Assembly (NCBI RefSeq): GCF_009931435.1
Contig: NZ_CP043414.1
Source: Escherichia coli
GTDB taxonomy: Bacteria; Pseudomonadota; Gammaproteobacteria; Enterobacterales; Enterobacteriaceae
Length of the DNA stretch: 64,000 bases
Direction: 5' to 3' (one strand)
The position numbers were made by a program, and so were the translations under genes. Below, in pieces: positions 7,425 through 62,934 of this stretch. Position 1 is the stretch's first letter, and the number at the start of each line of letters is the position of its first letter. The notes beneath the pieces are model-generated. The model did no database searches. It saw only the letters and a list, made by a program, of their open reading frames with translations, and was not told where the DNA came from.

Positions 7425-7443
7425 GCGTTAAGTCAGTCGTCAG

Positions 7444-7469
7444 ACGCCGGTTAATCCGGCGTTTTTTTT
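7444..7469 (+). terminator. Rho-independent terminator of fadD
   Basis: acgccgg-ttaat-ccggcgt stem followed by T8. Confidence 0.6.
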
Positions 7470-12462: not shown

Positions 12463-12663
12463 GAGTCATCTCCTGGGCATAAAAGCCCGTCTCTGGCTTT
12501 TGCCAGTTGTAATTATTTGCAGGGTATGAGTTGTATGTTGTGTTTAACAAATTGATTATTTACATGTTACATAAATTAAACAATTAAGAATACGGAAAGC
12601 CATAAAACACGAAACGGAAACAATAAAAGGTGAAATGACGCAGGTTATTTACTGCAAAGAACG

Positions 12664-12711: not shown

Positions 12712-13797
12712 TTAACGCAAAATAATTTTGCAAATCGCGTCGGCAACCTGTGGCGTGGTGGCATTGCCTTTCATATCAGGTGTTTTCGGACCGTGAGCAA
12801 TCACTTCTTCAATCGCGGCCAGAATACCGTTGTGTGCTTGCCGGAAACGCTCATCGCCATTGCCGAGGAAATCAAGCATCATTGCACCGGCCCAAATCGT
12901 GGCGATAGGGTTAGCAATATTTTTCCCGTAGATATCCGGCGCGGAACCGTGGACTGGCTCGAAGAGCGACGGGAAAGTGCGTTCCGGATTCAGGTTGGCG
13001 GATGGGGCAATGCCGATGGTGCCGGTGCAGGCCGGGCCAAGATCGGAAAGAATATCGCCAAACAAATTAGACGCCACCACCACATCGAAGCGTTCCGGCT
13101 GCATCACAAAACGTGCGCAGAGAATATCAATATGCTGCTTGTCCCAGCGGATCTCCGGGTAATTCTCAGCCATTGCTTCCACTCGCTCATCCCAGTACGG
13201 CATGCTGATGGCTAAACCGTTCGATTTAGTGGCAGAAGTTAGCGTCTTACGTGGGCGGCTTTGCGCAAGTTCAAAGGCATAGCGCAAAATACGATCGACA
13301 CCACGACGAGTAAATACCGATTCCTGAATGACGACTTCATGCTCTGTACCTTCATTCACTCTACCGCCGAGCGAGGAATATTCGCCTTCGGTGTTTTCCC
13401 TGACCACGTAAAAATCGATGTCGCCAGGCTGTTTTCCCGCCAGCGGGCAGGGAACGCCAGGAAAGAGACGAACCGGGCGCAGGTTGACGTACTGGTCGAA
13501 CTCACGACGAAATTTCAGCAGCGAACCCCACAACGAAATATGGTCCGGAACGGTATCCGGCCAGCCGACGGCACCAAAATAGATGGCGTCGAAACGGCTA
13601 AGTTGCTCATGCCAGTCGTCCGGCATCATTTTACCGTGATGGCTGTAATACTCGCAGCTCGCCCACTCCATTTGCTCAAAACTCAAGGCGAAGCCCCAGC
13701 GCTCAGCGGCAGCCTGTAACACGCGAATCCCTTCAGGAAGGACTTCTTTGCCAATCCCGTCTCCCGGGATCGCAGCAATACGCATCGTTTTCATCAT
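12712..13797 (-). CDS. dmlA: D-malate dehydrogenase (decarboxylating), isocitrate/isopropylmalate dehydrogenase family
   Basis: 361-aa ORF MMKTMRIAAIPGDGIGKEV... Confidence 0.9.
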   Translation of the reverse strand: MMKTMRIAAIPGDGIGKEVLPEGIRVLQAAAERWGFALSFEQMEWASCEYYSHHGKMMPDDWHEQLSRFDAIYFGAVGWPDTVPDHISLWGSLLKFRREFDQYVNLRPVRLFPGVPCPLAGKQPGDIDFYVVRENTEGEYSSLGGRVNEGTEHEVVIQESVFTRRGVDRILRYAFELAQSRPRKTLTSATKSNGLAISMPYWDERVEAMAENYPEIRWDKQHIDILCARFVMQPERFDVVVASNLFGDILSDLGPACTGTIGIAPSANLNPERTFPSLFEPVHGSAPDIYGKNIANPIATIWAGAMMLDFLGNGDERFRQAHNGILAAIEEVIAHGPKTPDMKGNATTPQVADAICKIILR

Positions 13798-13899
13798 TGG
13801 GTTCTCACTTCCTGACCATCAAAATTGACAATACCCTCATCCTATAATTGACTGAAAAGGAATTAATCCCCGTAACTGGTGAAACATAAAACACGAATC

Positions 13900-14823
13900 A
13901 TGAATAATTTACCGCTGCTGAACGATTTGCGCGTCTTTATGCTGGTGGCTCGCCGGGCTGGTTTTGCCTCCGTGGCAGAAGAATTGGGTGTTTCACCGGC
14001 TTTTGTCAGCAAACGCATTGCCTTGCTGGAACAAACGCTAAATGTGGTGTTGTTACACCGTACCACCCGCCGCGTCACTATTACCGAAGAAGGAGAGCGG
14101 ATTTATGAATGGGCGCAGCGGATTTTGCAGGATGTCGGCCAGATGATGGACGAGCTTTCTGACGTGCGTCAGGTGCCGCAGGGGATGTTGCGTATTATCA
14201 GCAGCTTTGGTTTTGGACGGCAGGTGGTGGCTCCGGCGTTATCGGCGTTGGCGAAGGCGTATCCGCAACTGGAGTTACGTTTTGATGTGGAAGACCGACT
14301 GGTCGATTTGGTCAATGAAGGTGTTGATCTCGATATTCGTATTGGTGATGACATTGCACCTAACTTAATCGCCCGCAAACTGGCGACCAATTACCGTATT
14401 CTCTGCGCATCGCCGGAATTTATTGCGCAATATGGCACGCCGAAACATTTAACCGACCTTTCTGCATTGCCGTGCCTGGTCATTAAAGAGCGCGATCATC
14501 CTTTTGGTATCTGGCAATTACGCAATAAAGAAGGCCACCATGCGATTAAAGTCACCGGCCCGCTGTCGTCTAATCATGGAGAAATTGTTCATCAGTGGTG
14601 TCTTGATGGTCAGGGGATTGCGCTACGCTCCTGGTGGGATGTCAGCGAAAATATTGCCAGTGGTCATTTAGTGCAAGTGCTACCGGAGTATTACCAGCCA
14701 GCAAATGTCTGGGCCGTTTATGTTTCAAGGCTGGCGACGTCAGCGAAAGTGCGGATAACGGTAGAATTTTTACGCCAGTATTTTGCCGAGCACTACCCGA
14801 ATTTTTCACTGGACCACGCCTGA
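13900..14823 (+). CDS. dmlR: LysR-family transcriptional regulator of dmlA
   Basis: ORF 13879..14823; start set at MNNLPLLNDLRVF; divergent from dmlA. Confidence 0.85.
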   Translation: MNNLPLLNDLRVFMLVARRAGFASVAEELGVSPAFVSKRIALLEQTLNVVLLHRTTRRVTITEEGERIYEWAQRILQDVGQMMDELSDVRQVPQGMLRIISSFGFGRQVVAPALSALAKAYPQLELRFDVEDRLVDLVNEGVDLDIRIGDDIAPNLIARKLATNYRILCASPEFIAQYGTPKHLTDLSALPCLVIKERDHPFGIWQLRNKEGHHAIKVTGPLSSNHGEIVHQWCLDGQGIALRSWWDVSENIASGHLVQVLPEYYQPANVWAVYVSRLATSAKVRITVEFLRQYFAEHYPNFSLDHA

Positions 14824-14931
14824 TTAATGATTCAATTATCGTGTTGATATCAGGTTAAACCCTGATTTTCTCCTTTCTAAGCCGCTAGAGATTGGTTAGC
14901 ATATTCACCTTTAATCGCGCATGATCGATAG

Positions 14932-15588
<657 letters not shown>

Positions 15589-15760
15589 TGCATTCAGCCC
15601 GCGTTGTCGCGGGCTTCCAACCTGTAATCCTCCCTGATTCTTCTCTGATACGGTGCTAAATAGTAACCAATAAATGGTATTTAAAATGCAAATTATCAGG
15701 CGTACCCTGAAACGGCTGAAATAAACCGTTTTCAGCGCATTCACCGAAGGAGGGAAAAGG

Positions 15761-16120
15761 ATGCTGCAAATCCCACAGAATTATATTCATACGCGCTCAA
15801 CGCCTTTCTGGAATAAACAAACTGCGCCTGCCGGAATATTCGAACGTCATCTTGATAAAGGAACGCGCCCAGGGGTATACCCACGCCTTTCCGTTATGCA
15901 TGGGGCGGTCAAATATCTCGGCTACGCTGATGAACACAGTACAGAGCCTGATCAAGTGATCCTTATCGAAGCGGGGCAGTTTGCGGTGTTCCCTCCAGAA
16001 AAGTGGCACAACATTGAAGCCATGACTGACGACACTTATTTCAACATTGACTTCTTCGTTGCTCCTGAAGTCCTGATGGAAGGCGCGCAACAACGAAAAG
16101 TCATTCATAACGGGAAATGA
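15761..16120 (+). CDS. yeaR: DUF1971 protein YeaR
   Basis: 119-aa ORF; forms a pair with yoaG 3 bp downstream. Confidence 0.85.
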   Translation: MLQIPQNYIHTRSTPFWNKQTAPAGIFERHLDKGTRPGVYPRLSVMHGAVKYLGYADEHSTEPDQVILIEAGQFAVFPPEKWHNIEAMTDDTYFNIDFFVAPEVLMEGAQQRKVIHNGK

Positions 16121-16123
16121 ATC

Positions 16124-16306
16124 ATGGGCAAAGCAACGTATACCGTGACCGTCACCAATAACAGTAATGGCGTTTCTGTCGATTATGAAACAGAGACGCC
16201 GATGACTTTGCTGGTGCCAGAAGTGGCGGCTGAAGTGATAAAAGATCTGGTGAATACCGTGCGTTCTTATGACACGGAAAACGAACATGATGTTTGTGGT
16301 TGGTAA
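16124..16306 (+). CDS. yoaG: DUF1869 protein YoaG
   Basis: 60-aa ORF MGKATYTVTVTNNSNGVSVDYETE... Confidence 0.8.
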   Translation: MGKATYTVTVTNNSNGVSVDYETETPMTLLVPEVAAEVIKDLVNTVRSYDTENEHDVCGW

Positions 16307-16453
16307 TTATCACTGATCGTAGATGGCGCAATTTCTGCGCCATCGCAAAAAAATCCTCCGTGATGCTTGTCACAAATCTTGCCCTCCTGATGTTGTGCTA
16401 TGCTTTTTATCAGCGACTAACCCGCTAATGCAAAACAGATAAGTGAGGAAACA

Positions 16454-16702
16454 ATGGGCATTCTGTCATGGATTATTTTTGGGCTTATTGCCGGTATTCT
16501 GGCGAAGTGGATCATGCCAGGTAAAGATGGTGGTGGATTCTTTATGACTATCCTGCTGGGGATAGTCGGTGCCGTAGTCGGCGGATGGATCAGCACGCTG
16601 TTTGGCTTTGGTAAAGTCGATGGCTTCAATTTTGGCAGCTTCGTGGTTGCCGTTATTGGTGCGATTGTCGTGCTGTTTATCTACAGAAAGATCAAAAGTT
16701 AA
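16454..16702 (+). CDS. yeaQ: GlsB/YeaQ/YmgE-family small membrane protein
   Basis: 82-aa ORF, glycine-rich TM helices. Confidence 0.85.
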   Translation: MGILSWIIFGLIAGILAKWIMPGKDGGGFFMTILLGIVGAVVGGWISTLFGFGKVDGFNFGSFVVAVIGAIVVLFIYRKIKS

Positions 16703-16760
16703 CGCGTAAATTGCACAAAGGCTGCACACAGGCAGCCTTTGCTATTTTTTAGATGTGACG

Positions 16761-16835
16761 TTACCACCATCCCAACTCAGTGCCGAGAACGACAATAATC
16801 GCTACGCCCATCATAATAATCGTTGTTTTTTTCAT
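16761..16835 (-). CDS. yoaJ: Small membrane protein YoaJ (24 aa)
   Basis: Hand translation of minus strand: MKKTTIIMMGVAIIVVLGTELGWW; not in ORF track. Confidence 0.75.
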   Translation of the reverse strand: MKKTTIIMMGVAIIVVLGTELGWW

Positions 16836-16837
16836 CT

Positions 16838-16936
16838 TTATGCTCCCGGGGCAGCATAGCCGCCAATAAAAAACCATGCTAAAAATACGACCGCTGTAAT
16901 AAAGATTACAACCGGAAAAATAATACCGATTCGCAT
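16838..16936 (-). CDS. yoaK: Small membrane protein YoaK (32 aa)
   Basis: Hand translation of minus strand: MRIGIIFPVVIFITAVVFLAWFFIGGYAAPGA; stop lies 2 bp upstream of the yoaJ start. Confidence 0.75.
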   Translation of the reverse strand: MRIGIIFPVVIFITAVVFLAWFFIGGYAAPGA

Positions 16937-16968
16937 GTTATCACCAATCAAAAGGATGTGAATACGCC

Positions 16969-17994
16969 TCAGGAATGTAGCGCTGAATGCGCGACAAAAG
17001 GTGTTTTCTGTTTGTGTTTTTTCTCCTGATACATCGCGATATCGGCAGCATGCAGGGCGCTGTCTGCATCGGTCGTTTCAGGATCGACTTCTACTATGCC
17101 AAGACTGGCACCAGGATAATACAAATCAACATCACCTAAGTGATATTCTCCGCGTATTTGCTGTTGAATACGTTCTCGCAGCGATGGAATATCCGCATTC
17201 TCATTGTTCAGTGAAACAACCAAAAACTCATCACCGCCGAGACGACCAATAACTTCGCCATTTTGCTGGAGCGTATTAAGGCGCTCGCCAACCTGAATAA
17301 GAAACAGATCGCCACTATTATGACCAAAACGATCATTGATTAATTTGAAGTTATCCAGATCGATAAATGCGATCATTATCTTATGGTTAAGATGCCTCGC
17401 AAGAGAAAACAGCGTCGTCAGGTTTTCAAAAATCGCCCGCCGATTCGGTAGCCCGGTTAACGAGTCGGTATACGATTGCGCAATCAGTGCGGCATTGGCT
17501 TCGCGCAGCTGTTCAACCAGCGCCTCTTTTTGAATATATTGTGCAATCAGTCCGGCGAATAACTGCAAAACCTGTTCCGCGCGTTCACTCCACTGGCGCT
17601 TCTCACTGCTGGCGGCGCAAAGCGTGCCATAGAATGATCCATCCGGTAAGTGAATTGGCGTGCTCAGAAATGTGGTGATGCCAAGATTGCGTGCCGCAAT
17701 ACAGTCGCCCCAACGGTCGGGGACTTCATCGCTGAAAAAGCAGTTTTCATCAATGGCGCGTTTGCATAACGAGTAATCCCACGAGACGGTAAAATTCTCC
17801 GGGATGTGCATTTTCTGGCTGTTACGGGCAAACATTATATGCTGCAGGCGCGCTTCGACATCCACTTTGGTCAGGTAGGTTGATTCCATATCAGTGACCA
17901 TTTCCAGCATCTCCAGAAGCTGTCGGACCAGGCTTTCCAGTGACTGTTCTTTGGCAAGGGATTGCGAGACGCGGGCGATAATCTGATCTGACAC
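16969..17994 (-). CDS. dgcP: Diguanylate cyclase, GAF-GGDEF
   Basis: ORF 16969..18123; start set at in-frame GTG (VSDQIIARV) for 341 aa; intact RLGGDEF motif. Confidence 0.85.
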   Translation of the reverse strand: MSDQIIARVSQSLAKEQSLESLVRQLLEMLEMVTDMESTYLTKVDVEARLQHIMFARNSQKMHIPENFTVSWDYSLCKRAIDENCFFSDEVPDRWGDCIAARNLGITTFLSTPIHLPDGSFYGTLCAASSEKRQWSERAEQVLQLFAGLIAQYIQKEALVEQLREANAALIAQSYTDSLTGLPNRRAIFENLTTLFSLARHLNHKIMIAFIDLDNFKLINDRFGHNSGDLFLIQVGERLNTLQQNGEVIGRLGGDEFLVVSLNNENADIPSLRERIQQQIRGEYHLGDVDLYYPGASLGIVEVDPETTDADSALHAADIAMYQEKKHKQKTPFVAHSALHS

Positions 17995-18176
17995 GAAACA
18001 ACTCCAGGATACGGCGGGTAAATGCTGATTATTTAATCTTTGCAGGCATGATAAAACATCAACAACAAAGATGAAACAAGGCGTAATATGATTTGAGTGA
18101 ATGTAATAAAAATAGTGCTGCAAAACAAAACGATACCGCGATACTCTAAGCCTGGATAAATATGTGAGATCAATAA

Positions 18177-18431
18177 ATGAAAATTATCAGTTTTGTTCTG
18201 CCTTGCTTGCTGGTCCTGGCTGGTTGTTCAACCCCTTCTCAGCCAGAAGCACCTAAACCGCCGCAGATTGGTATGGCAAATCCGGCGTCGGTCTATTGCC
18301 AGCAGAAGGGCGGGACGCTCATTCCTGTGCAGACAGCGCAAGGGGTCAGCAACAATTGCAAATTACCGGGCGGTGAAACGATTGATGAATGGGCATTGTG
18401 GCGACGGGACCATCCGGCTGGTGAAAAATAA
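18177..18431 (+). CDS. yoaF: DUF333 lipoprotein YoaF
   Basis: 84-aa ORF with LAGC lipobox. Confidence 0.8.
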   Translation: MKIISFVLPCLLVLAGCSTPSQPEAPKPPQIGMANPASVYCQQKGGTLIPVQTAQGVSNNCKLPGGETIDEWALWRRDHPAGEK

Positions 18432-18452
18432 CCGCCGGATGCTGCACTAAAA

Positions 18453-18800
18453 TCACAAGCTACGTAGCCAGTCTGCCAGCACCAGCGCATGGTTCTGCGT
18501 GGTGTTTTTTGCTGAGTAGAGCAGGGTTAGCGGCTGTTTTTTGGCGATGTCTGCCAGCCGCTTTCCTTCTTGCTCGTGTTGCGCCAGTTCTGCAAGATAT
18601 TGCTCGCGAAAGGTTGCAAAATCGACGACTTCGCCGTGAAAGGCTTTGCGCAGTTCCGTTGACGGCGTGATTTCTTTATCCCACTCATCAAGGGCTAAAT
18701 CGGTTTTTTTGATACCACGCGGCCAGAGGCGGTCGACCAGTACGCGATAACCATCGCTCTGTTCAGCCGGATCATAAACGCGTTTGCACTGAATATTCAT
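18453..18800 (-). CDS. yeaO: DUF488 protein YeaO
   Basis: ORF 18453..18821; start set at MNIQCKRVYDP (115 aa). Confidence 0.8.
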   Translation of the reverse strand: MNIQCKRVYDPAEQSDGYRVLVDRLWPRGIKKTDLALDEWDKEITPSTELRKAFHGEVVDFATFREQYLAELAQHEQEGKRLADIAKKQPLTLLYSAKNTTQNHALVLADWLRSL

Positions 18801-18854
18801 CGTATTTGTTCTCCTTTTCACGCATGATTTGTCACGTCACTATAGCACCGGATA

Positions 18855-20036
18855 TTAGCGAATTTCTTTGTCTCTTCCGGCGCAAAGTCCGAAAATCGCC
18901 ATCAGTAGTGAAAGTATTGCAACTCCCATCAGTGGTACGGACCAGTCACCGTTAGCATCGTGTATTTTGCCCATCAGCGGCGGCCCACAGGCTGCCAGCA
19001 AATACCCGACGGATTGTGCCATCCCCGAGAGTGCCGCCGCCTGATGCGCCGAACTTGCCCTCAGACCAATGAACGTCAACCCCAGTATCATTGTTGCGCC
19101 GGAACCAAAACCGAAAAGCAGAGTCCAGGTGATCGCGTGTGCTGGCATAAAGCAGAGCCCAACCGCGCCCACTGCGCACATCAAGGCAACGAACGCTGCA
19201 ATACCACGCTGATCTTTCACATGATGTAAGAAAAGTGGGATCAGCAAACCGGGAGCTGCTGTGGCTAGTTGCAGCAAACCATGCAGTGAACCCGCCTGTG
19301 CTTCGCTATAGCCGTGACTGATGAGGATCGCCGGAAGCCAGCCAATAATCACGTAATAGACGAGTGAGTTGATCCCAAGAAACAATGTTACCTGCCAGGC
19401 AAGCGGCGAACGCCAGATACCCCGAGTATGTAAGGCGCGTGAGGTACTCAAATTTGCATGTTGTTGACTTCGCCACTGTGGCAGCCATAAAAAAAGAGCC
19501 AGCAGAGGAAAACACATCAGCATGAGCAACGCGCCTTGCCAGCCAAAACCGTTCAAAGCCAGCGGCACGACCATAGCCGATCCCAGTGCCGCCGCAGCTC
19601 CCATTGTCAGGGAATATGCGCCGGTAAGTCTGGCGACGGAATGAGGGAAATCGCGTTTAATTAATCCTGGCAGTAAGACATTGCCTAATGCAATCCCACC
19701 GCCAATGACCGCTGTACCGCCAAATAATAAGTAAGGCGAAGGGAGAGAGCGAATTGCAATACCAGCACAGATCAAAAGTAACGCGGCAAACAGGCTACGT
19801 TCCATACCAAAACGTCGCGCCACCGGGGCGGCCAGCGGTGAGATTAGCGCAAAGGCTAATAATGGCAGGGTGGTCAATAAGCCGGTTTGCGCCGTCGTTA
19901 GCGAGTAAGCGGAACGAATCGTATCCAGTAACGGTGCTGCGCCGGTAAAGGTGACGCGTAATGTTGTGGCAATCATCAGAATGCCAGCGATAAGGACAAT
20001 CCTGTTTTTACCGCTTAATGAAGTTGAACAGGTCAT
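18855..20036 (-). CDS. nimT: MFS transporter (2-nitroimidazole exporter NimT)
   Basis: 393-aa ORF, 12-TM MFS-like. Confidence 0.85.
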   Translation of the reverse strand: MTCSTSLSGKNRIVLIAGILMIATTLRVTFTGAAPLLDTIRSAYSLTTAQTGLLTTLPLLAFALISPLAAPVARRFGMERSLFAALLLICAGIAIRSLPSPYLLFGGTAVIGGGIALGNVLLPGLIKRDFPHSVARLTGAYSLTMGAAAALGSAMVVPLALNGFGWQGALLMLMCFPLLALFLWLPQWRSQQHANLSTSRALHTRGIWRSPLAWQVTLFLGINSLVYYVIIGWLPAILISHGYSEAQAGSLHGLLQLATAAPGLLIPLFLHHVKDQRGIAAFVALMCAVGAVGLCFMPAHAITWTLLFGFGSGATMILGLTFIGLRASSAHQAAALSGMAQSVGYLLAACGPPLMGKIHDANGDWSVPLMGVAILSLLMAIFGLCAGRDKEIR

Positions 20037-20132
20037 ATGCTTCTCATTGTTACAAACGAGGCTGTACCTTACCGTTTTTATTGTTATGTTGAATCAAGCT
20101 AAAATGACAAAATATCGCTAAATTCGGACAAA

Positions 20133-20954
20133 ATGATGCACAGGTTGAATCTCAATGGCTATGAACCCGACCGACACCATGAAGCCGCGGTCGCATTTTG
20201 TATTCACGCCGGAACGGATGAGTTAACCAGTTCTGTACATAAGCACCGCAAAGGGCAGTTGATACTGGCACTACATGGTGCAATTACCTGTACGGTGGAA
20301 AATGCTTTGTGGATGGTGCCGCCACAATATGCGGTTTGGATACCGGGCGGGGTGAAACATAGCAATCAAGTGACAGCTAACGCTGAACTCTGTTTTCTGT
20401 TTATCGAACCCAGCGCAGTGACAATGCCGACAACATGTTGCACATTGAAAATATCGCCCTTATGCCGGGAATTAATTTTAACCCTGGCAAACAGGACGAC
20501 GACTCAGCGTGCTGAGCCGATGACCCGCAGATTAATTCAGGTCCTGTTTGATGAACTCCCTCAGCAGCCACAACAACAGCTGCACCTGCCCGTTTCTTCT
20601 CATCCTAAAATCCGCACGATGGTGGAGATGATGGCGAAAGAGCCCGTCGAGTGGGGCTCATTGGGGCAATGGGCTGGCTTTTTTGCGATGAGTGAACGCA
20701 ATCTTGCCCGGCTGATAGTGAAAGAGACGGGGTTGAGTTTTCGCCAGTGGCGTCAGCAGTTACAGCTGATTATGGCGCTTCAGGGATTAGTAAAAGGCGA
20801 TACAGTACAGAAAGTTGCACATACGCTGGGGTATGATTCAACAACGGCCTTTATTACTATGTTTAAGAAAGGCCTGGGGCAAACGCCAGGCCGATATATT
20901 GCGGGATTAACTACTGTTTCCCCACAATCAGCGAAACCAGACCCGCGGCAATAA
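20133..20954 (+). CDS. nimR: AraC-family transcriptional regulator NimR
   Basis: 273-aa ORF with cupin N-domain and AraC HTH C-domain; divergent from nimT. Confidence 0.85.
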
Positions 20955-21357
20955 GCGGGCCAACCGGTACGCCGCGAAACAGCGCCACGCCCAAAACAGT
21001 GCCCACCAGCAGCCCGGCGACCAGTTGCGGCTGGCTGCCCATTAACGTCACGCCGCGCCCACCTAGCCAGGAGACAATAACGCCTACTGCAATTGCCACC
21101 AGCGATTTCCAGTTCAGAAATGAGTGAATCAGGGTTGAGGGCGGTAGCGTCCCGCTGGCGATGGGGGCCATAACGCCAATCGTCAGAATGATTATCCCGA
21201 TACTTAGCCCCTGTTTTTCAATCCACGGGAAAAAGGTGCTTAACGGTGTGACGCGGACAATGATTAACACCAGAATTGAAACGGCGACAGTGGTGTTATG
21301 ACTGATAAAGCCCAGCGCAGCTAACCCGAGCAGGATCAGCAAAGTGACATCAAACAT
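20911..21357 (-). CDS. yeaL: UPF0756 membrane protein YeaL
   Basis: 148-aa ORF; 3-prime end overlaps nimR by 44 bp (convergent). Confidence 0.8.
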
Positions 21358-21525
21358 CGTGGTTTCCTTGCCAAAAAATAATAAGCCTGCTTACTTTACG
21401 CTTGCTGCAGGAAGGAAGTAGAAAATCTTTACGTTTTTTGCATAAAAAATCAGGCGAACTGTCATCAAACTGCCATTTGTACACGCTATCAATAACGTGA
21501 AAACAGTTATCTCCCGGGGCATACC

Positions 21526-21630
21526 ATGAACGATCAAATGTTCGTTGAGACACTGATTATCACGTCATCGTTTTTTGTTATTGCTGTTGTGCTAGTTTTG
21601 TCCGTTCTGCTTATTGAACGGACAGGCTAG
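21526..21630 (+). CDS. yoaI: Small membrane protein YoaI (34 aa)
   Basis: Hand translation: [34 protein letters not shown]; not in ORF track; stop abuts the yeaK stop. Confidence 0.7.
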
Positions 21631-22134
21631 TTACGCAGTGCGGCGGAAATTCACCAGTTCTGGTTTCGCAATGCGCAGATAATCCGCAGTTTTCAAAATA
21701 ACGGATTTATTCAGCATGCCTGCATTAAAGGCGATTTCATCGAATCGCTCGAAGAGCAATGGGTCGGCGACCAGTTTGAGTTTTGGATGGAAGCTGAAAG
21801 GGGGGATCGCGCCAAAGACACAGCCTGTGAGTTCATCGACTTCCGCCGGGCTGGCCAACGAAGCGCGTAATCCGCCTATATGGATGGCAAGTTGGCTCAG
21901 ATCGGCCTGTTGATCGGCAGCGAGGATCGCCAGAACATGTTGATTTACGCCATTGCCTTTGACTTTACATACCAGTGCCTTAGCCCCCTGGCCTAAAGCG
22001 GTGCCACGAATTTCTGACACCGCTTCGCATTTACCTACCGCCTCATGGGTAACGACGCGGAAGTCAGCTCCTTCTTGTGATAATAAAGCGATTAACCGCT
22101 GATGCGTCACGCTTCCTTTAGCCATTTCAGTCAT
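21631..22134 (-). CDS. yeaK: YbaK/ProX-type aminoacyl-tRNA deacylase YeaK
   Basis: 167-aa ORF. Confidence 0.8.
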   Translation of the reverse strand: MTEMAKGSVTHQRLIALLSQEGADFRVVTHEAVGKCEAVSEIRGTALGQGAKALVCKVKGNGVNQHVLAILAADQQADLSQLAIHIGGLRASLASPAEVDELTGCVFGAIPPFSFHPKLKLVADPLLFERFDEIAFNAGMLNKSVILKTADYLRIAKPELVNFRRTA

Positions 22135-22176
22135 TTCATGCTCCTGAGATTACAAGCAAACAACCACAGAAGATTA

Positions 22177-23667
22177 TCATGAACGGCTGTTTTTGTTCTG
22201 CTTATTGACATATAAACGCTCATCGGAAGCTTTATACGCATCATGTAACGTATCGTTTTCTTTCATCGCATAAATACCGGAAGAGAAGCCGATCTCTTTC
22301 TGCGGCGCGATATGTTGCAGACGTTTTTCGATACGTTCAGGCAGTTGTGCTGCAATTTGCGGCGTCGAATCGACAAGAATGATGCAGAATTCATCGCCAC
22401 CGAGTCGGATGGCATAATCACTTTTACGAATCGACTGTTTAATCGCCTGAGCTAATAACGTAATCGCTAAATCTCCTTCCTGATGACCGAGCGTGTCATT
22501 TATTTGCTTTAACTTGTCCATGTCAATTGCAATAAACATCACCGAAGAACCAGATTGCACCAGTTTTTGCAACCGCTGCTCCAGTTCAGGGGTTAATATT
22601 TTGCGATTATACAGTCCGGTCATCGCATCACTAATATTTTCTCGCGACACATTTTGGTATAAACGGAAGTGCATCCGCACCATATTCAGCAAAATTAACG
22701 CCGTCAAAATCCAGAACAGAACGCTTTTCCACGAAGATGTGATAAAGTAAAGAATATCAATGGATAACGATACACGAATGCCGCCCGGTAAGTCATGGAC
22801 GTAACTGACATACTGGAACAGATTATCTTCGCTCTGGTTGATGATAATGTCGCGCCCAGAATCTGTATCGGTTAGCGTGACATTGAGAAAACGCCAGAGG
22901 AGAGGGCGGTCATGCGTGTAAAAGATATTCCGCAGATTGTTTTTATTAATATCCAGCAGCACAATTCCTTTTAGCTGCCCTGCAACATACACTGGCGTCA
23001 GCAAACTCATCACGTTCTGTTTAGTACGCTGATCCTGGTAAATGCTCGATAATACGGTGCGACCGGTAAAAACTTTTTCAATATCTTTGCGATCGATGCC
23101 AATGCTTCCTGACTGCAGGAAGGACCAGTTATTCATCGCAAAGTACTCAACATTAACCGGCTCATAAAAATAGACATAGAGGTCATTGAGATCGAGATAA
23201 TAGTGAAATTTCTCTTCGGCCATTCCAAGACCTGAACCATAATCATCCTGGTGGCGGTTGCCTTCCACTGCCTGATCAAAAGCGGGTAATAGTGCCGCAG
23301 CTTCCACAATTGTGTCGCAGTCAGTGGATGCGGTTTGTAGTGTACCGTGTAAGCCCGTGTACTTATGGGCAGTCAGGTTTAAACCATGGGTATTATTGGC
23401 AGACTCAAAAGCCTCGCAGATGGCGCGCCGCTGTTCTGGCGACACTTCCGACTGCTCAGCAGCGAGAGCGCGCATCACATGCGCGGCAATGCTCTGATTC
23501 TGATACTTATCATAAAGAAAGGAGGAGTCTGCTCTCTGCACGATATAGCGCAGATAGGCACTCATTGCTCTGTCGCTGGCGACAAGTTCAAAAATAAGGA
23601 AGGAAGATGTCAGCACAATGACACTTGCGGCGATAAAATGCCGGAGCATTCTATGGTGCAATTTCAT
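22177..23667 (-). CDS. dgcJ: Membrane-anchored diguanylate cyclase
   Basis: ORF 22177..23847; start set at MKLHHRMLRHF (496 aa); intact RLGGDEF. Confidence 0.85.
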   Translation of the reverse strand: MKLHHRMLRHFIAASVIVLTSSFLIFELVASDRAMSAYLRYIVQRADSSFLYDKYQNQSIAAHVMRALAAEQSEVSPEQRRAICEAFESANNTHGLNLTAHKYTGLHGTLQTASTDCDTIVEAAALLPAFDQAVEGNRHQDDYGSGLGMAEEKFHYYLDLNDLYVYFYEPVNVEYFAMNNWSFLQSGSIGIDRKDIEKVFTGRTVLSSIYQDQRTKQNVMSLLTPVYVAGQLKGIVLLDINKNNLRNIFYTHDRPLLWRFLNVTLTDTDSGRDIIINQSEDNLFQYVSYVHDLPGGIRVSLSIDILYFITSSWKSVLFWILTALILLNMVRMHFRLYQNVSRENISDAMTGLYNRKILTPELEQRLQKLVQSGSSVMFIAIDMDKLKQINDTLGHQEGDLAITLLAQAIKQSIRKSDYAIRLGGDEFCIILVDSTPQIAAQLPERIEKRLQHIAPQKEIGFSSGIYAMKENDTLHDAYKASDERLYVNKQNKNSRS

Positions 23668-23847
23668 GATAAATGGCACTCCTTCGGTTAGTGAAACGAG
23701 AAAACCAGATAAAGTTCGATTGCGGCCTGGCACAGGGGCGCTAATTATACTCATCTCTGCGCCGCTGGGGAGGGGAAATTTAGGGGTAATAGTAATAAAT
23801 TGTATGCAAAAGCCACGCAAAAAGCATGGCTCTGAATATTTTTGCAC

Positions 23848-25323
23848 TTAAATATGATGAATAATCACTTTGTTGCCCCCCTCGCTTTTCGCTTCGCGTA
23901 AGGCTTTATCTGCTTCCGTCATGACAAGCGAGATATTACGCGTGTCACCCGTTGAAAAAACCGTGCCAATACTGATGGTCATTTGTTCAGGAACATCATA
24001 TCTGTTACTAAAACCGGTCAGGAGTTCGACATTTTTACGCATACGTTCCGCAATGATTTTTGCCTGGGCACTATTGAGTTCGGTAAATAGCAAGCCAAAC
24101 ACCTCACCCTCCAGTCGCGCTAAAATATCATCGGGGCGGATGCTTTGCTGGATAATATCGACAATTGAAACCAGCACTTTATCACCCACACGATGTCCCC
24201 ATTGGGCATTGATGCGCTTGAACTGATTAATATCAACCAGCATGACACAAAAGTCCTTAACAACAGGTCGCGACAATAATGACTCTACGCTGTTGAAAAA
24301 GTAGCGCCGATTATAAATATTGGTCAGTACATCATGAACTGCCAGTTTGCTGGAGAGTTGCAGTTCCTGAAAAATGTTATAAATCAGAAAAGACACAACA
24401 AACAGTTTACTGGAAACTTCAATCCCGCGACTGATATACCAGATGGTGTAATTATACTCATCCAGAGTCAGTAGAAGTAAGTTGCAGCATAGCGATGCCA
24501 GACATAATAATGCTATTAACGGCCATAGTTCGCTGGCTAATCGTGTACGCATGATAATAAAGAACAGTAAAAATGCCCACAAACAAACCAATATTTTTGT
24601 ATAGTTGATTCCCCAGGTCGCAGTATGGTTGTCCGGACAGTAATCGACGACATACAAAGAATAGTCAGCGTTATAACTGCTCAGATTGTGTGCCAGAAGG
24701 GGAAAAACTAAAAAAGGAATCAGCGCCAGCAACAGAATGCCAGTTTTTTTCTTATTGTTGTCAAGGATGTTGTCTTTCCCATAACAAAAGAGCGCCAGCG
24801 AGGTTAAACAAATGAAACTGAGTTGGCGGAAAATATAGAAAATAGAAACATCATTCGACTTTGTCTGGATCAGTGTACTGCCGTTGATTGGTTTATGGAT
24901 AATTACAATGGTTTCAACTAAATAGATAAGGCCACTTAAAAATGCAAGGCTTAAAATGAGTGTTGGTAAAATTTGTTTGTTAGTGAAATACTTCATTAAC
25001 ATGAAAAGAAAAATGACGGCGTTAAGGAAAAACAAAGCCACAACAACCATCAGGTAATTCATCTGTGGGATGAGTTTTACATTGGTGTTTTCGTTATATA
25101 AGGTAGTAATGCAAAATAAAATTAACGTCAGCAATAAGCTGAAAATAAAAAAGCCTTGAGCTTTTAATTTTTGTGTACCCATAGAAGCCATAAAAAGGAG
25201 AGCAATGTGAGTGCTGGATTTTATTGATGGCAGAGATATATGGTTTTGACCAAGATCAATTTTCGTTGACGATAAAAAATAATTAAAGAATAACCCCAGG
25301 GAAATACGTGTTGACCGAATCAT
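23848..25323 (-). CDS. cdgI: Membrane GGDEF-domain protein with degenerate active site (c-di-GMP binding, CdgI/YeaI)
   Basis: 491-aa ORF; GGDEF position reads ARLEGEVFGLLF (EGEVF), so likely catalytically inactive. Confidence 0.85.
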   Translation of the reverse strand: MIRSTRISLGLFFNYFLSSTKIDLGQNHISLPSIKSSTHIALLFMASMGTQKLKAQGFFIFSLLLTLILFCITTLYNENTNVKLIPQMNYLMVVVALFFLNAVIFLFMLMKYFTNKQILPTLILSLAFLSGLIYLVETIVIIHKPINGSTLIQTKSNDVSIFYIFRQLSFICLTSLALFCYGKDNILDNNKKKTGILLLALIPFLVFPLLAHNLSSYNADYSLYVVDYCPDNHTATWGINYTKILVCLWAFLLFFIIMRTRLASELWPLIALLCLASLCCNLLLLTLDEYNYTIWYISRGIEVSSKLFVVSFLIYNIFQELQLSSKLAVHDVLTNIYNRRYFFNSVESLLSRPVVKDFCVMLVDINQFKRINAQWGHRVGDKVLVSIVDIIQQSIRPDDILARLEGEVFGLLFTELNSAQAKIIAERMRKNVELLTGFSNRYDVPEQMTISIGTVFSTGDTRNISLVMTEADKALREAKSEGGNKVIIHHI

Positions 25324-25469
25324 TTTTCCGAATGATTGTTTTCTGAAACTAAATTGTGTAAAGGTTATGCTGTCATATTTAAAGCGATTGTAAGCTAATG
25401 TATGTAATAAATGAGATAATTTACAGTGAGCTAAAAATCAGCCAGGCGATAATGACCCGGCTGACAGTT

Positions 25470-26765
<1,296 letters not shown>

Positions 26766-26865
26766 CTACATTTGCCAACTGTTTGCTACGCCTGTGTTGC
26801 CGCTTCTCTGGCCCACGGTTCGCTGTCGTTGTAGGCCCGGTAGCATGCGTACCGGGCCATGGTTG

Positions 26866-28800
26866 TTAAGACGATTTACGTACGCGCAAATACCATTCGC
26901 ACAGTAAACGCACCTGTTTACGGGTGTAGCCTTTTTCCATCATACGGTCGACAAAATCGTCGTGTTTCTTCTGCTCGTCGGTTGACGTTTTGGCGTTAAA
27001 CGAAATAACCGGCAACAGCTCCTCGGTATTAGAGAACATTTTCTTCTCAATAACCGTGCGCAGTTTTTCATAGCTGGTCCAGTTCGGATTGCGTCCGCTG
27101 TTATTCGCTCTGGCGCGCAGTACGAAGTTGACAATCTCGTTGCGGAAATCTTTTGGATTACTGATCCCCGCCGGTTTCTCAATTTTCTCCAGCTCAGCGT
27201 TGAGAGATTCGCGGTCAAATAGCTGCCCGGTATCCGGGTCGCGATACTCCTGATCCTGAATCCAGAAATCTGCATACGTGACATAACGGTCAAAAATGTT
27301 TTGTCCATATTCAGAATAGGATTCAAGATACGCAGTCTGAATCTCTTTACCGATAAACTCAGCATATTTCGGAATCAAGTAACCTTTCAGGAACTCGAGA
27401 TAACGCTCAGCCTGCTCCTGAGGGAACTGCTCGCGCTCGATCTGCTGTTCCAGGACGTAGAACAGATGAACAGGGTTTGCTGCCACTTCCACGTGGTCGA
27501 AGTTGAACACGCGAGAGAGGATCTTAAACGCAAAACGCGTGGACAGACCGTTCATCCCTTCATCAACGCCTGCGTAGTCACGATATTCCTGATACGACTT
27601 GGCTTTCGGATCGGTGTCTTTCAGACTTTCGCCATCATAAACCCGCATCTTCGAATAAATGCTGGAGTTTTCCGGCTCTTTCAGACGCGAAAGAATGGAA
27701 AAACGAGACAGCGTTTCCAGCGTGCCAGGTGCGCATGGGGCGTGAGTCAGTTCACTGTGATTAAGCAATTTCTCGTAGATTTTGATCTCTTCGGAAATAC
27801 GCAAGCAATATGGCACCTTCACGATATAAACACGATCGAGGAAGGCTTCGTTGTTCTTGTTATTACGGAAAGTGACCCATTCGGATTCGTTCGAATGGGC
27901 GAGAATAATCCCGTTAAACGGCAGGGCGGAGATACCTTCCGTCCCGTTGTAGTTACCTTCCTGAGTGGCGGTTAACAGGGGATGCAGCACTTTAATCGGT
28001 GCTTTAAACATCTCGACAAACTCCATGATCCCCTGGTTGGCGCGGCATAGTGCACCGGAATATCCGTAGGCGTCCGGATCGTTCTGCGCGTAGTGTTCGA
28101 GTTTACGGATATCGACTTTCCCTACCAGCGCTGAGATGTCCTGGTTGTTCTCATCGCCAGGTTCCGTTTTGGCGATAGCAATTTGTTGCAGAATTGACGG
28201 CCAGACCTTTACCACCCGGAACTTAGTAATATCGCCACCAAATTCATGCAGGCGTTTTGCTGCCCACGGCGACATGATGGTGCCAAGATAGCGTCGAGGA
28301 ATGCCATACTCTTTTTCCAGAATCTGCGCATCTTCTTGCGGATTGAAAAGACAGAACGGATGATCGTTGACCGGGCTCCGCTCACCGTTAGCGCTTAATA
28401 CATAGATCGGCACGAGCTGCATTAATGATTTCAGTCGCTCAGCAAGCGATGATTTACCCCCACCCACAGGCCCCAGCAGATACAGGATTTGTTTCTTCTC
28501 CTCCAGCCCCTGAGCCGCGTGTTTCAGATAAGAGACAATCTGTTCAATCGCGTCTTCCATGCCGTAAAACTCTTCAAAGGCCGGGTAACGTGCAATGACC
28601 CGGTTAGAAAAGAGTCGAGAAAGTCTGGGTTCCTGGGCTGTATCGACCATGACAGGCTCACCGATAGCCATCAATAGCCGCTCAGCCGCGTTGGCATAAG
28701 CACTGCGATCTTGCCGACAAGTGGTAAGAAACTCCTGCAGTGTGAACTCTTCGTCCTTGGCAGCTTCATATCGCTGGCGATAGTGATCGAATATATTCAT
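26866..28800 (-). CDS. yeaG: PrkA-family serine protein kinase YeaG
   Basis: 644-aa ORF; Walker A LLGPVGGGKSSL. Confidence 0.9.
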   Translation of the reverse strand: MNIFDHYRQRYEAAKDEEFTLQEFLTTCRQDRSAYANAAERLLMAIGEPVMVDTAQEPRLSRLFSNRVIARYPAFEEFYGMEDAIEQIVSYLKHAAQGLEEKKQILYLLGPVGGGKSSLAERLKSLMQLVPIYVLSANGERSPVNDHPFCLFNPQEDAQILEKEYGIPRRYLGTIMSPWAAKRLHEFGGDITKFRVVKVWPSILQQIAIAKTEPGDENNQDISALVGKVDIRKLEHYAQNDPDAYGYSGALCRANQGIMEFVEMFKAPIKVLHPLLTATQEGNYNGTEGISALPFNGIILAHSNESEWVTFRNNKNNEAFLDRVYIVKVPYCLRISEEIKIYEKLLNHSELTHAPCAPGTLETLSRFSILSRLKEPENSSIYSKMRVYDGESLKDTDPKAKSYQEYRDYAGVDEGMNGLSTRFAFKILSRVFNFDHVEVAANPVHLFYVLEQQIEREQFPQEQAERYLEFLKGYLIPKYAEFIGKEIQTAYLESYSEYGQNIFDRYVTYADFWIQDQEYRDPDTGQLFDRESLNAELEKIEKPAGISNPKDFRNEIVNFVLRARANNSGRNPNWTSYEKLRTVIEKKMFSNTEELLPVISFNAKTSTDEQKKHDDFVDRMMEKGYTRKQVRLLCEWYLRVRKSS

Positions 28801-29235
28801 GGTATGCCGTCCTTTCGTTTTTTAGCACAGGTTAAGAGCCGTTCATATGAATAGTAGAGGCTCCCGGAAGAGGTAAACTGAACGACGTCTCTTGCTAAAA
28901 CACAGCAACTCTCATGCCATTTTATCGACGATGAGAACAACGTGCCCGGTGATACACCTTCAAAATTAAGCGTAGATGGCAAATGGAAAACTTGCCTGCA
29001 CGGCTTTCTTAATTTCAATGGCATATCAACAACTCATCCATAAAATTTGCATAATTAATGTAAAGACCAGGGTCGCCAGTAACGCGTAATTCATTTGGCT
29101 GTAAGCGTGGTGTCATCTGCGTCAGGAAAATTAAACAGTTACTTTAAAAAATGAAAACGTAAAAAGGTTGGGTTTCGATGTATTGACGGGTAAACTTTGT
29201 CGCCCGCTAAACATTTGTTTAAGGAATGATTAATT

Positions 29236-29982
29236 GTGACCAAACTCAAACTTCTGGCACTTGGAGTGCTTATCGCAACGTCTGCAGGCGTAGCGCACGC
29301 TGAAGGTAAATTTTCCCTGGGCGCAGGCGTAGGTGTCGTTGAACACCCATATAAAGATTACGATACCGATGTTTACCCAGTACCGGTAATCAACTATGAA
29401 GGCGATAACTTCTGGTTCCGTGGCTTAGGTGGTGGTTACTACCTGTGGAATGACGCAACGGATAAACTTTCAATTACCGCTTACTGGTCGCCGCTTTACT
29501 TCAAAGCTAAAGACAGTGGCGATCACCAAATGCGTCACCTGGATGACCGTAAGAGCACCATGATGGCTGGTCTGTCTTATGCTCACTTTACCCAGTACGG
29601 TTACCTGCGTACCACCCTGGCTGGCGATACCCTGGATAACAGCAACGGCATCGTCTGGGATATGGCCTGGTTGTATCGTTACACCAACGGTGGCCTGACC
29701 GTGACTCCGGGTATTGGTGTGCAGTGGAACAGCGAAAACCAGAACGAATACTATTATGGCGTATCGCGCAAAGAGTCTGCGCGCAGCGGTCTGCGTGGCT
29801 ATAACCCGAATGACAGCTGGAACCCTTACCTGGAGCTAAGTGCCAGCTACAACTTCCTCGGCGACTGGAGTGTTTACGGCACCGCACGCTACACTCGTCT
29901 GTCTGATGAAGTTACTGACAGCCCGATGGTAGATAAATCCTGGACTGGCCTGATTTCTACCGGGATCACCTACAAATTCTGA
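29236..29982 (+). CDS. mipA: MltA-interacting outer-membrane protein MipA
   Basis: 248-aa ORF, GTG start, signal peptide, ends in aromatic (F) typical of beta-barrel OMPs. Confidence 0.85.
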   Translation: MTKLKLLALGVLIATSAGVAHAEGKFSLGAGVGVVEHPYKDYDTDVYPVPVINYEGDNFWFRGLGGGYYLWNDATDKLSITAYWSPLYFKAKDSGDHQMRHLDDRKSTMMAGLSYAHFTQYGYLRTTLAGDTLDNSNGIVWDMAWLYRYTNGGLTVTPGIGVQWNSENQNEYYYGVSRKESARSGLRGYNPNDSWNPYLELSASYNFLGDWSVYGTARYTRLSDEVTDSPMVDKSWTGLISTGITYKF

Positions 29983-33736: not shown

Positions 33737-34009
33737 ATGAATCTTGATGACATTATCAACAGCATGACGCCTGAGGTATACCAGCGTTTGTCGACAGCCG
33801 TTGAACTGGGTAAGTGGCCAGATGGCGTTGCGCTGACCGAGGAACAAAAAGAGAACTGCCTACAGCTGGTGATGCTGTGGCAAGCCCGCCATAATACCGA
33901 AGCACAGCATATGACAATTGACACACATGGTCAGATGGTTATGAAGAGCAAACAACAGTTAAAAGAAGATTTTGGTATCTCAGCAAAGCCTATTGCCATG
34001 TTTAAATGA
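33737..34009 (+). CDS. yeaC: DUF1315 protein YeaC
   Basis: ORF 33692..34009; start set at MNLDDIINSM (90 aa). Confidence 0.8.
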   Translation: MNLDDIINSMTPEVYQRLSTAVELGKWPDGVALTEEQKENCLQLVMLWQARHNTEAQHMTIDTHGQMVMKSKQQLKEDFGISAKPIAMFK

Positions 34010-34177
34010 TTGAATTATTCAGCTTTTTGAGTCTGTTATTAAGTGCGAACAAAAATACTTGTTTGACGTCTTGATTGTTCGATTTAGCGGTTGATAGGTT
34101 AAATGCAACACTGACGAGTATAACCTGGCCTACGATGTCAATGAGGAAATGTAGGCCAGAGATGTATTCAACTAATA

Positions 34178-36700: not shown

Positions 36701-36803
36701 ATCAGATGCTAAATGAGCAAGGGAATGTAGTGGAGAGAGGGAGTGAAAGACAGTCCGATTCAGGAGTGTGGCCGACAGCATATCGGCCACATTTTTGCAG
36801 GAT

Positions 36804-42492: not shown

Positions 42493-42515
42493 TGCTCTGA
42501 TGCAGTCAGTTTTCG

Positions 42516-42560
42516 TAGGCCAGATAAGGCGTTCACGCCGCATCTGGCATAAACGCCTGA
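42516..42560. repeat. REP (repetitive extragenic palindromic) element between convergent topB and gdhA
   Basis: gtaggccagataaggcgttcacgccgcatctggca, classic REP consensus. Confidence 0.55.
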
Positions 42561-42575
42561 AACGGCGCTAATGAC

Positions 42576-62775: not shown

Positions 62776-62934
62776 TGTTGACTCCGAGTGCTGGTTATCT
62801 ATCCAGTGTAACAGGCGGGGAGCGATTAAAAAAGAGGCGGGTCGATGACAAAGGTTACACCATGAGACGTGCTACGCCTGTCAGGCCTATTCGACTCCTG
62901 CAATGTATTGAATTTGCATAGTTTTGTAGGTTGA

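Follow-up and report, generated by a model that had tools for sequence, protein, structure and literature searches.

The locus considered here raises the question of why two GGDEF proteins of the inner membrane are encoded side by side when only one of them carries a recognisable active site for the synthesis of cyclic di-GMP (c-di-GMP). The genes, dgcJ (yeaJ) and cdgI (yeaI), lie on the minus strand of a 64,000-nucleotide stretch of Escherichia coli DNA (contig NZ_CP043414.1 of assembly GCF_009931435.1; referred to below as the window). An initial annotation, made from the letters of the sequence, had proposed two adjoining membrane GGDEF genes, and the open reading frame (ORF) list and a motif search reproduced both genes and their coordinates. 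It is considered highly probable that both genes belong to the E. coli core genome and are transcribed independently, that DgcJ is a working cyclase and CdgI a pseudo-enzyme acting as a c-di-GMP receptor, and that the apparent N-terminal extension of dgcJ is a non-coding spacer. The features of cdgI on which the first part of the argument depends are as follows.

23848 to 25323, minus strand: cdgI (yeaI) coding sequence as given in the databases, 491 amino acids.
24097 to 24117, minus strand: degenerate active site (A-site) of CdgI, RLEGEVF, amino acids 403-409 in the 491-residue numbering.
24127 to 24138, minus strand: intact inhibitory site (I-site) of CdgI, RPDD, amino acids 396-399.

CdgI contains a MASE4 domain (PF17158; 1.5e-48 over amino acids 88-319) followed by a GGDEF domain (9.1e-45) according to Pfam. 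Seven hydrophobic segments were counted in the protein, and MASE4 has been described as a seven-transmembrane (7-TM) domain in AlphaFold-based work (PMC10760455). Among the NCBIfam profiles CdgI passed only the generic GGDEF domain model. Catalytic and allosteric residues were mapped in the numbering of PleD, the sequence and numbering of which were checked against the PDB. CdgI was homologous to PleD (PDB 1W25/2V0N; E = 3e-19) across the whole domain, with the position of the I-site shared, and to 6ZXM (E = 4e-22), the solved active GGDEF domains giving the same residue pattern. PleD, however, carries GGEEF and is active, whereas CdgI departs from it in the signature (G368E and E371V) and also at D329N, D336A, Y439R and R446G; the equivalents of D327, K332, N335, H340, D344, R366 and K442 are retained. 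The signature that had been read as RLEGEVF was thus found at amino acids 403-409, and the alignment with characterised diguanylate cyclases that had been suggested as a check confirmed the loss of G368 and E371 in CdgI, while DgcJ and a third GGDEF protein, DgcP, keep all signature residues. CdgI lacks an intact GG(D/E)EF motif (E405-G-E-V408-F) and, due to this together with D329N, D336A and R446G, it was not filed as a cyclase. R446G was dropped as a marker of inactivity in its own right, since DgcJ and DgcP, which are active, lack the arginine too. The RefSeq/PGAP name for CdgI, 'sensor domain-containing diguanylate cyclase', is misleading given the degenerate A-site.

The two proteins with intact signatures are encoded as follows.

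22177 to 23667, minus strand: dgcJ (yeaJ) coding sequence, 496 amino acids, annotated ATG at 23667.
Within DgcJ: transmembrane helix 1, amino acids 8-26; periplasmic GAPES1/dCache domain, amino acids 31-304; transmembrane helix 2, amino acids 309-327; GGDEF domain, amino acids 346-494.
22387 to 22407, minus strand: A-site of DgcJ, RLGGDEF, amino acids 421-427, with D425 and E426 catalytic.
22417 to 22428, minus strand: I-site of DgcJ, RKSD, amino acids 414-417.
16969 to 17994, minus strand: dgcP (yeaP) coding sequence, 341 amino acids, GTG start, GAF and GGDEF domains.
17224 to 17244, minus strand: RLGGDEF of DgcP, amino acids 251-257.

DgcJ was matched by GAPES1 (PF17155; 1.9e-149, covering positions 1-274 of 274) and GGDEF (3.2e-40), and belongs to the NCBIfam equivalog NF040885 (744 bits against a cut-off of 500, profile positions 1-492 aligning to residues 4-495). 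DgcP was matched by GAF_2 (1.4e-10), GAF (6.7e-09) and GGDEF (1e-40). In all three proteins, CdgI included, the GGDEF domain (PF00990) lay above the gathering score, and TIGR00254 gave 121-125 bits against a cut-off of 37. DgcJ and DgcP both keep D327, D329, K332, N335, D336, H340, D344 and R366 together with GGDEF (amino acids 423-427 and 253-257, respectively). In DgcJ, which had been described as retaining RLGGDEF, the motif was located and the equivalents of G368, G369, E370 and E371 were all present; its I-site and the R390 equivalent are also intact (R414/D417/R445). DgcP has no RxxD I-site and reads QQNGE instead (Q244/E247). The claim of a third GGDEF gene with a GAF domain and an intact RLGGDEF about 4 kb away agreed with Pfam, the motif and the gap of 4183 nucleotides between dgcP and dgcJ. 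The dgcJ gene evolves under an ω (ratio of non-synonymous to synonymous substitution rates) of ~0.03 against E. albertii, and GGAAF and DE425NQ mutants of DgcJ are inactive (PMC8669469, PMC8669472). DgcJ is a working diguanylate cyclase, as the published genetics shows, in which both the active site and the inhibitory I-site are intact.

What, then, does CdgI do? Its I-site is complete, consisting of R396-x-x-D399 five residues before the signature and R427 (equivalent to R390), and the RxxD and R390 equivalents were invariant in 15 MASE4-GGDEF relatives. Of the stand-alone GGDEF proteins of E. coli K-12, CdgI alone has been described as degenerate; its A-site is affected and its I-site is not, and the purified His6-tagged GGDEF domain binds c-di-GMP (Sarenko et al. 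2017, PMC5635695, Fig. S4). The invariant I-site and this published binding both support the earlier suggestion that yeaI encodes a c-di-GMP sensor. A GGDEF domain used as a receptor has precedents: in PelD, PopA and SgmT a degenerate A-site is accompanied by a conserved RxxD that binds c-di-GMP. CdgI differs from these in its partner domains and outputs, and its origin, in an active MASE4 cyclase encoded at the syntenic position, would be recent.

The earlier suggestion had included GTP as the possible ligand. In Caulobacter PdeA (CC3396) a degenerate GGDEF domain that retains the guanine-binding residues senses GTP and activates the EAL domain to which it is fused, and CdgI might likewise sense GTP at its degenerate A-site and not c-di-GMP at its I-site. 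As in PdeA, the residues of CdgI that bind guanine are kept although the signature is degenerate: N372 and D381 (equivalent to N335 and D344, which contact guanine), K479 (K442) and D364 (D327) are invariant in the Escherichia orthologues. Its metal and phosphate ligands, however, are lost or drifting (two lineages have N or K in place of E370, position 371 is V, E or R, and R446 is G throughout), and CdgI has neither an EAL nor any other enzymatic output domain, as judged by Pfam, that GTP could regulate. As it is c-di-GMP binding that has been shown experimentally (PMC5635695), and as the I-site is invariant, GTP sensing by CdgI is considered unlikely.

The history of the A-site was followed through CdgI orthologues, identified from a protein search and cluster names, in E. 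marmotae, E. whittamii, E. albertii, E. fergusonii, Citrobacter enshiensis, Citrobacter sp. Awk 4, Citrobacter sp. NCU1 and a locus from Logan SRR26188688 (L010). Five loci were compared with their flanks, and the gene order yeaG-yeaH-(MASE4-GGDEF)-(GAPES1-GGDEF)-yeaK was present in all five. The Citrobacter orthologues are canonical (RLGGEEF, DIDHFKRIND, GRN), whereas proteins of the Escherichia lineage read EGEVF (E. coli and E. fergusonii), EGEEF (E. marmotae), EGNVF (E. albertii) or EGKRF (L010). The equivalents of RxxD, R390, N335 and D344 were invariant across all CdgI orthologues, including those of Citrobacter. Because all Escherichia-lineage proteins share the glycine-to-glutamate change and then differ, the comparison points to a single loss of catalysis before Escherichia diversified, after which the signature drifted and the I-site did not; drift among these four signatures is the pattern expected once catalysis had been lost. 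The L010 gene (positions 1370 to 2716 of that locus) encodes an orthologue 64% identical to CdgI that reads RLEGKRF in the same synteny, and the glycine-to-glutamate change may, on the strength of this sequence, predate the named Escherichia species. CdgI is also ~40% identical to MASE4-GGDEF relatives carrying GGEEF (P0029 to P0034). Its closest paralogues have been named as DgcT (YcdT) and DgcX (PMC5635695, PMC10459773), active E. coli cyclases with which it shares the architecture of a 7-TM MASE4 and a GGDEF domain; these keep GGEEF, IND, GRN and their activity, whereas CdgI has EGEVF, INA and GGN.

These substitutions also bear on the possibility that CdgI, despite EGEVF, retains a weak or conditional diguanylate cyclase activity and adds c-di-GMP in some conditions. 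Older genetics treats YeaI as a cyclase: the biofilm defect of CFT073 ΔyeaI in lysogeny broth (LB) without salt was complemented by the heterologous cyclase WspR (PMC3484386), and yeaI is said, in a second-hand citation of Sanchez-Torres 2011 by PMC6824119, to raise c-di-GMP in BW25113. The equivalents of D327, K332, N335, D344 and R366 are moreover retained. On the other hand, the signature has lost its first glycine and the catalytic E371, and D336, D329 and R446 are gone too. Positions 370 and 371 vary freely in Escherichia (E/N/K and V/E/R), a freedom incompatible with an active site. WspR failed to complement the same mutant in glycerol medium (PMC3484386), and specialists class CdgI as inactive (PMC5635695), or 'catalytically non-functional' (PMC10459773). 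Residual cyclase activity is regarded as very improbable, and the claim that yeaI does not encode a cyclase was upheld by the changes at the signature, D329 and D336 and by the drift at the signature among Escherichia species.

Another possibility is that cdgI is a pseudogene, decaying, silent and without function, and there is some evidence for this. CdgI is undetectable under standard conditions, in aerobic LB, a complex medium (PMC5635695). Truncated forms are frequent in the protein database (P0013, P0019 and P0024), cdgI has been lost and dgcJ truncated in S. flexneri (PMC11327459), and a cdgI-dgcJ' deletion arose in a laboratory-evolved K-12 strain (PMC8117528). Two database proteins, P0026 (532 amino acids) and P0035 (560 amino acids), have the N-terminal part of CdgI (MASE4) fused to the C-terminal part of DgcJ and seem to have arisen naturally, through deletions between the neighbouring genes. 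Selection nevertheless argues strongly against decay. Between the window and K-12 the ω of cdgI was 0.014, codons 48-491 differing at one non-synonymous and 19 synonymous sites. Against E. albertii, at a synonymous divergence (dS) of ~1, it was 0.076 for the gene, and the GGDEF domain taken by itself gave 0.077. In ten E. coli strains 44 of the 50 segregating sites in codons 48-491 were silent. The region was detected in 5410 of 5426 complete genomes. Since the loss of the A-site the gene has persisted in every Escherichia species, and it is regulated by AppY, SrsR and RstA, with FNR binding as well. The cdgI gene is not decaying and is under strong purifying selection (ω 0.01-0.08); the pseudogene explanation is accorded very little probability.

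CdgI is accordingly best read as a membrane protein in which a 7-TM MASE4 domain is followed by a GGDEF domain. The latter would have lost catalysis in the Escherichia ancestor, by G368E and then drift at 370/371, D336 and R446, and would have kept its RxxD/R390 I-site under purifying selection. Since the I-site was kept and selection continued after catalysis was lost, the protein would act as a c-di-GMP receptor and not as a synthase. Overproduction of CdgI is toxic, strong heteromeric contacts were seen between its GGDEF domain and those of several other proteins, and Sarenko et al. propose that CdgI inhibits other GGDEF proteins under modulation by c-di-GMP (PMC5635695); following that proposal, its output is probably heteromeric contact of this kind. 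No data on contact between CdgI and DgcJ were found in the supplements of that paper, which hold primer tables only (PMC5635695). Several points weigh against this reading: the heteromeric contacts come from a two-hybrid assay with the overproduced domain, no published in vitro cyclase assay of CdgI was found in the literature, and the WspR complementation and the second-hand c-di-GMP report described above favour a cyclase. In addition, the conservation of N372 and D381 makes nucleotide binding at the A-site conceivable.

The same strain comparison that revealed purifying selection on cdgI also placed the beginning of the gene in doubt, and the coding sequence considered most likely to be translated is shorter than annotated.

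23848 to 25182, minus strand: cdgI coding sequence as most likely translated, 444 amino acids from M48 (or 447 amino acids from M45 at 25191), comprising the 7-TM MASE4 and the degenerate GGDEF domain.

In annotated codons 1-47 (25183 to 25323) there were seven non-synonymous and no synonymous differences between the window and K-12, against one and 19 elsewhere in the gene (P = 9e-6), so that seven of the eight amino-acid differences in CdgI fall within these doubtful codons. Among the ten E. coli strains, nine changes in codons 1-47 altered an amino acid and none was silent, compared with six and 44 in codons 48-491 (Fisher P = 4e-7), and segregating sites were distributed 3/4/2 over codon positions 1/2/3 in the former and 3/1/46 in the latter. 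One of the ten strains, 2017C-4109 (L015), has ATT at the annotated ATG; in E. albertii this ATG is absent and the frame holds indels and a stop, and the frame in Citrobacter also contains stops. M48 (25182) is the only ATG common to all seven taxa aligned, M45 (25191) being common to most Escherichia species, and orthologues outside E. coli are annotated at 444-448 amino acids. The first hydrophobic helix begins nine residues after M48, in keeping with a 7-TM protein whose N-terminus is short and external. The first 44-47 annotated codons are thus very probably not coding, and the true start, to judge from these alignments, is probably M45 or M48 and not the annotated ATG. No Shine-Dalgarno sequence was found at M45 or M48, which counts against a start there, but its absence would fit the very low level of CdgI protein.

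The DNA upstream of M45 and M48 contains two elements conserved in the seven-taxon alignment.

25246 to 25259, minus strand: FNR box, TTGATCTTGGTCAA, inside annotated cdgI codons 22-26.
25218 to 25223, minus strand: TAAAAT, a hexamer resembling a -10 box, with a transcription start predicted near 25211.

The FNR box (TTGAT-N4-(A/G)TCAA) forms a conserved island from Citrobacter to E. coli, with a perfect consensus in three taxa, and the hexamer is conserved as TA(A/G)AAT. The spacing between the two is 22 nucleotides (21 in E. albertii) and is conserved in flanking DNA that has otherwise diverged. If the hexamer is the -10 box, the FNR box would be centred at -41.5, the position of a class II activator site. 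Myers et al. (2013) reported the motif TTGATCCTGGTCAA 'within yeaI' under an FNR peak in both ChIP-seq and ChIP-chip (chromatin immunoprecipitation; PMC3688515, Tables S5 and S6), as well as higher anaerobic σ70 occupancy of yeaI (PMC3688515); no FNR-dependent change in yeaI expression was recorded in glucose minimal medium (PMC3688515, Table S9). FNR binding at yeaI is therefore already known; because the gene appears to be shorter than annotated, we infer that the site belongs to cdgI's own promoter.

Other reported inputs to cdgI are CsrA (PMC5635695), SrsR and AppY (a ChIP peak and 34-fold induction), and RstA has been reported to bind the yeaI promoter in enterohaemorrhagic E. coli (PMC6824119). 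Expression would need special conditions, reached through FNR, AppY, SrsR, RstA and CsrA. Further upstream, an RstA-like box, TACATTAGCTTACA (TACA-N6-TACA), was observed 5' of cdgI at 25389 to 25402 on the minus strand, and the promoter scan returned a σ70-like promoter in the yeaH-cdgI spacer (25362 to 25335); together these may represent a second, upstream cdgI promoter. A hairpin 3' of yeaH sets yeaGH apart from cdgI.

25437 to 25465, minus strand: terminator-like hairpin 3' of yeaH, from the terminator scan.

On the other side of cdgI, the dgcJ ORF can be extended upstream to 23847 (22177 to 23847, minus strand, 556 codons from GTG), an extension of exactly 60 codons that opens with a GTG abutting the cdgI TAA and happens to share the reading frame of cdgI and dgcJ. 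The initial annotation had judged this extension probably untranslated. The following features were found.

23668 to 23847, minus strand: cdgI-dgcJ spacer, 180 nucleotides, non-coding.
23810 to 23832, minus strand: hairpin GCCATGC-UUUUU-GCGUGGC with a U-run, directly 3' of the cdgI stop, identified by folding.
23744 to 23749, minus strand: TATAAT, probable -10 box of dgcJ, with a transcription start predicted near 23737.
23679 to 23684, minus strand: AAGGAG, Shine-Dalgarno sequence of dgcJ, 11 nucleotides before the ATG at 23667.

The stem of the hairpin is maintained by differing sequences in E. fergusonii and in both Citrobacter loci, and because quite different sequences preserve it the hairpin is probably the intrinsic terminator of cdgI. 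GTATAAT is invariant in seven taxa, as are AGGAG and the ATG of dgcJ. No -35 element for dgcJ was recognisable in the spacer, and since it is missing the dgcJ promoter is likely to be activator-dependent. A general promoter scan, which returned seven promoter-like sites against 9.4 expected, missed the dgcJ TATAAT (for which there is no -35), and the general terminator scan did not flag the cdgI hairpin.

The 60 codons might be translated as part of a longer form of DgcJ, or ribosomes might pass the cdgI stop and produce a CdgI-DgcJ fusion. In favour of this, all 60 codons are open, only one TAA divides them from cdgI, their frame is that of both genes, and this DNA is extremely conserved within E. 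coli. The spacer did not differ from K-12 at any of its 180 positions, while all other spacers in the surrounding 16 kb differed by 1.4-5.6%. Identity of 99% or more was found in 5375 of 5408 genomes, whereas two control stretches matched in length were this similar in 40 of 5417 and 5 of 5418, and ten diverse strains showed three segregating sites (1.7%), compared with 4.8-6.4% upstream of cdgI; conservation within E. coli is thus far above that of neighbouring spacers or synonymous sites. This conservation is, however, at the nucleotide level, with no differences of the synonymous type. The length of the spacer varies (166 nucleotides in L010, 179 in E. albertii, 180 in E. coli, 182 in E. 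fergusonii, and 185 and 189 in Citrobacter) and the frame with it, several stops interrupt the frame in Citrobacter, and between E. coli and E. albertii the differences are mostly amino-acid-changing (nine changes in ~57 codons). The stretch also holds the terminator hairpin and the invariant -10 box, and a frame of 60 codons is open by chance in ~6% of random sequence. A long isoform or read-through product was rejected, as neither the open frame nor the length is conserved in other species, and such a product is considered almost certainly not to exist. The earlier judgement therefore stood, on the grounds of the Citrobacter stops, the varying length and the presence of a terminator, a -10 box and a Shine-Dalgarno sequence inside the extension; NF040885, moreover, starts at residue 4 of the 496-residue protein, and the numbering of the published DgcJ mutant (DE425NQ, PMC8669472) fits the 496-residue form. 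The 'extension' of dgcJ is a non-coding spacer that holds the cdgI terminator and the promoter and leader of dgcJ. A structured RNA in the spacer was unsupported (a 201-nucleotide fold gave z = -2.0, driven by the terminator hairpin), and no Rfam match was found in the spacer.

The cyclase activity of DgcJ is required specifically for infection by phage N4. DgcJ has a periplasmic dCache domain and contacts NfrB, a c-di-GMP-activated glycosyltransferase that synthesises the N4 receptor glycan and that DgcJ activates locally (PMC8669469, PMC8669472). The periplasmic dCache/GAPES1 domain between the two transmembrane helices would control the cytoplasmic GGDEF domain, and its c-di-GMP would, as the literature has it, be handed locally to NfrB. 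Transcription of dgcJ is stronger at 37 than at 30 °C (PMC8669469, PMC8669472). A sigma-54 promoter suggested for yeaJ (PMC3162934) was rejected; the best site, TGGCACGGTTTTTTCA at 23953 to 23968, falls inside cdgI, and sigma-54 matches in the window (50, against 46 expected) showed no excess over chance. A sigma-54-like element, TGGCATGAGAGTTGCT, with one mismatch to TGGCAC-N5-TTGCW, was also noted ~100 nucleotides 5' of yeaG (28904 to 28919, minus strand).

The cdgI and dgcJ genes do not represent a recent tandem duplication. This was ruled out because their GGDEF domains are only 29% identical and the N-terminal sensor domains are unrelated; CdgI is no closer to DgcJ than to DgcP, with which its GGDEF domain shares 31% identity.

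The locus as a whole corresponds to that of K-12. Positions 13709 to 29708 (16 kb) are, in reversed orientation, colinear with K-12 MG1655 1866000-1882000 at 97.0% identity, and the 3.5 kb surrounding cdgI and dgcJ were matched in 5424 of 5426 complete E. coli genomes. In the orientation of the window the order is leuE, yeaR, yoaG, yeaQ, yoaJ, yoaK, dgcP, yoaF, yeaO, nimT, nimR, yeaL, yoaI, yeaK, dgcJ, cdgI, yeaH, yeaG (RefSeq annotation of the best-matching genome and of K-12), and the genes dgcJ, cdgI and dgcP and their ends are identical in the RefSeq annotation of near-identical E. coli genomes and K-12. CdgI (YeaI, b1785) and DgcJ (YeaJ, b1786) of K-12 have the same motifs and the same neighbours (yeaG, yeaH and yeaK) and represent the same locus; the single amino-acid difference in residues 48-491 of CdgI and the four in DgcJ are allelic only.

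Elsewhere in the window, the 9.2-kb ydjE-ydjL cluster and ynjI are missing relative to K-12 (at ~34006 to 34172 and ~42464 to 42573), and an extra SIMPL-domain gene (35978 to 36790, minus strand, an ORF of 270 codons), found in 943 of 5426 complete genomes, lies between sppA and ansA. A segment of 223 nucleotides without a K-12 counterpart (12335 to 12557), at the 5' end or upstream of yeaV, appears from its sequence to encode a longer YeaV N-terminus. The sole Rfam matches in the window were the small RNAs sroD (7383 to 7468, plus strand, 115 bits) and ES036/CssrF (62883 to 62925, minus strand, 42.9 bits), and no tRNA genes were found in the window.

The cdgI-dgcJ locus is well known and ordinary, and the interpretation first placed on it is correct yet already published. 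For specialists nothing is added by CdgI as the textbook stand-alone degenerate GGDEF protein, or by DgcJ as the characterised local cyclase of the phage N4 receptor pathway. A broader reading, possible but less likely than not, would join the observations: the cdgI model would be 44-47 codons too long, FNR would act on the true cdgI promoter from a class II activator position at -41.5, CdgI would be a c-di-GMP-gated pseudo-cyclase, expressed anaerobically (in the gut), that titrates other GGDEF proteins, and the spacer would be a dense control region of dgcJ, possibly a thermo-responsive element. If this were true, anaerobic expression would explain the absence of CdgI from aerobic laboratory cultures, and a plausible FNR-dependent promoter points to the conditions in which CdgI may be made. 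The corrected start would affect the design of tagged or overexpression cdgI constructs, and the conserved region upstream of dgcJ is where the regulator behind the induction at 37 °C may be sought. The series from Citrobacter to Escherichia would provide a clean, datable case of an enzyme turned receptor while under selection.

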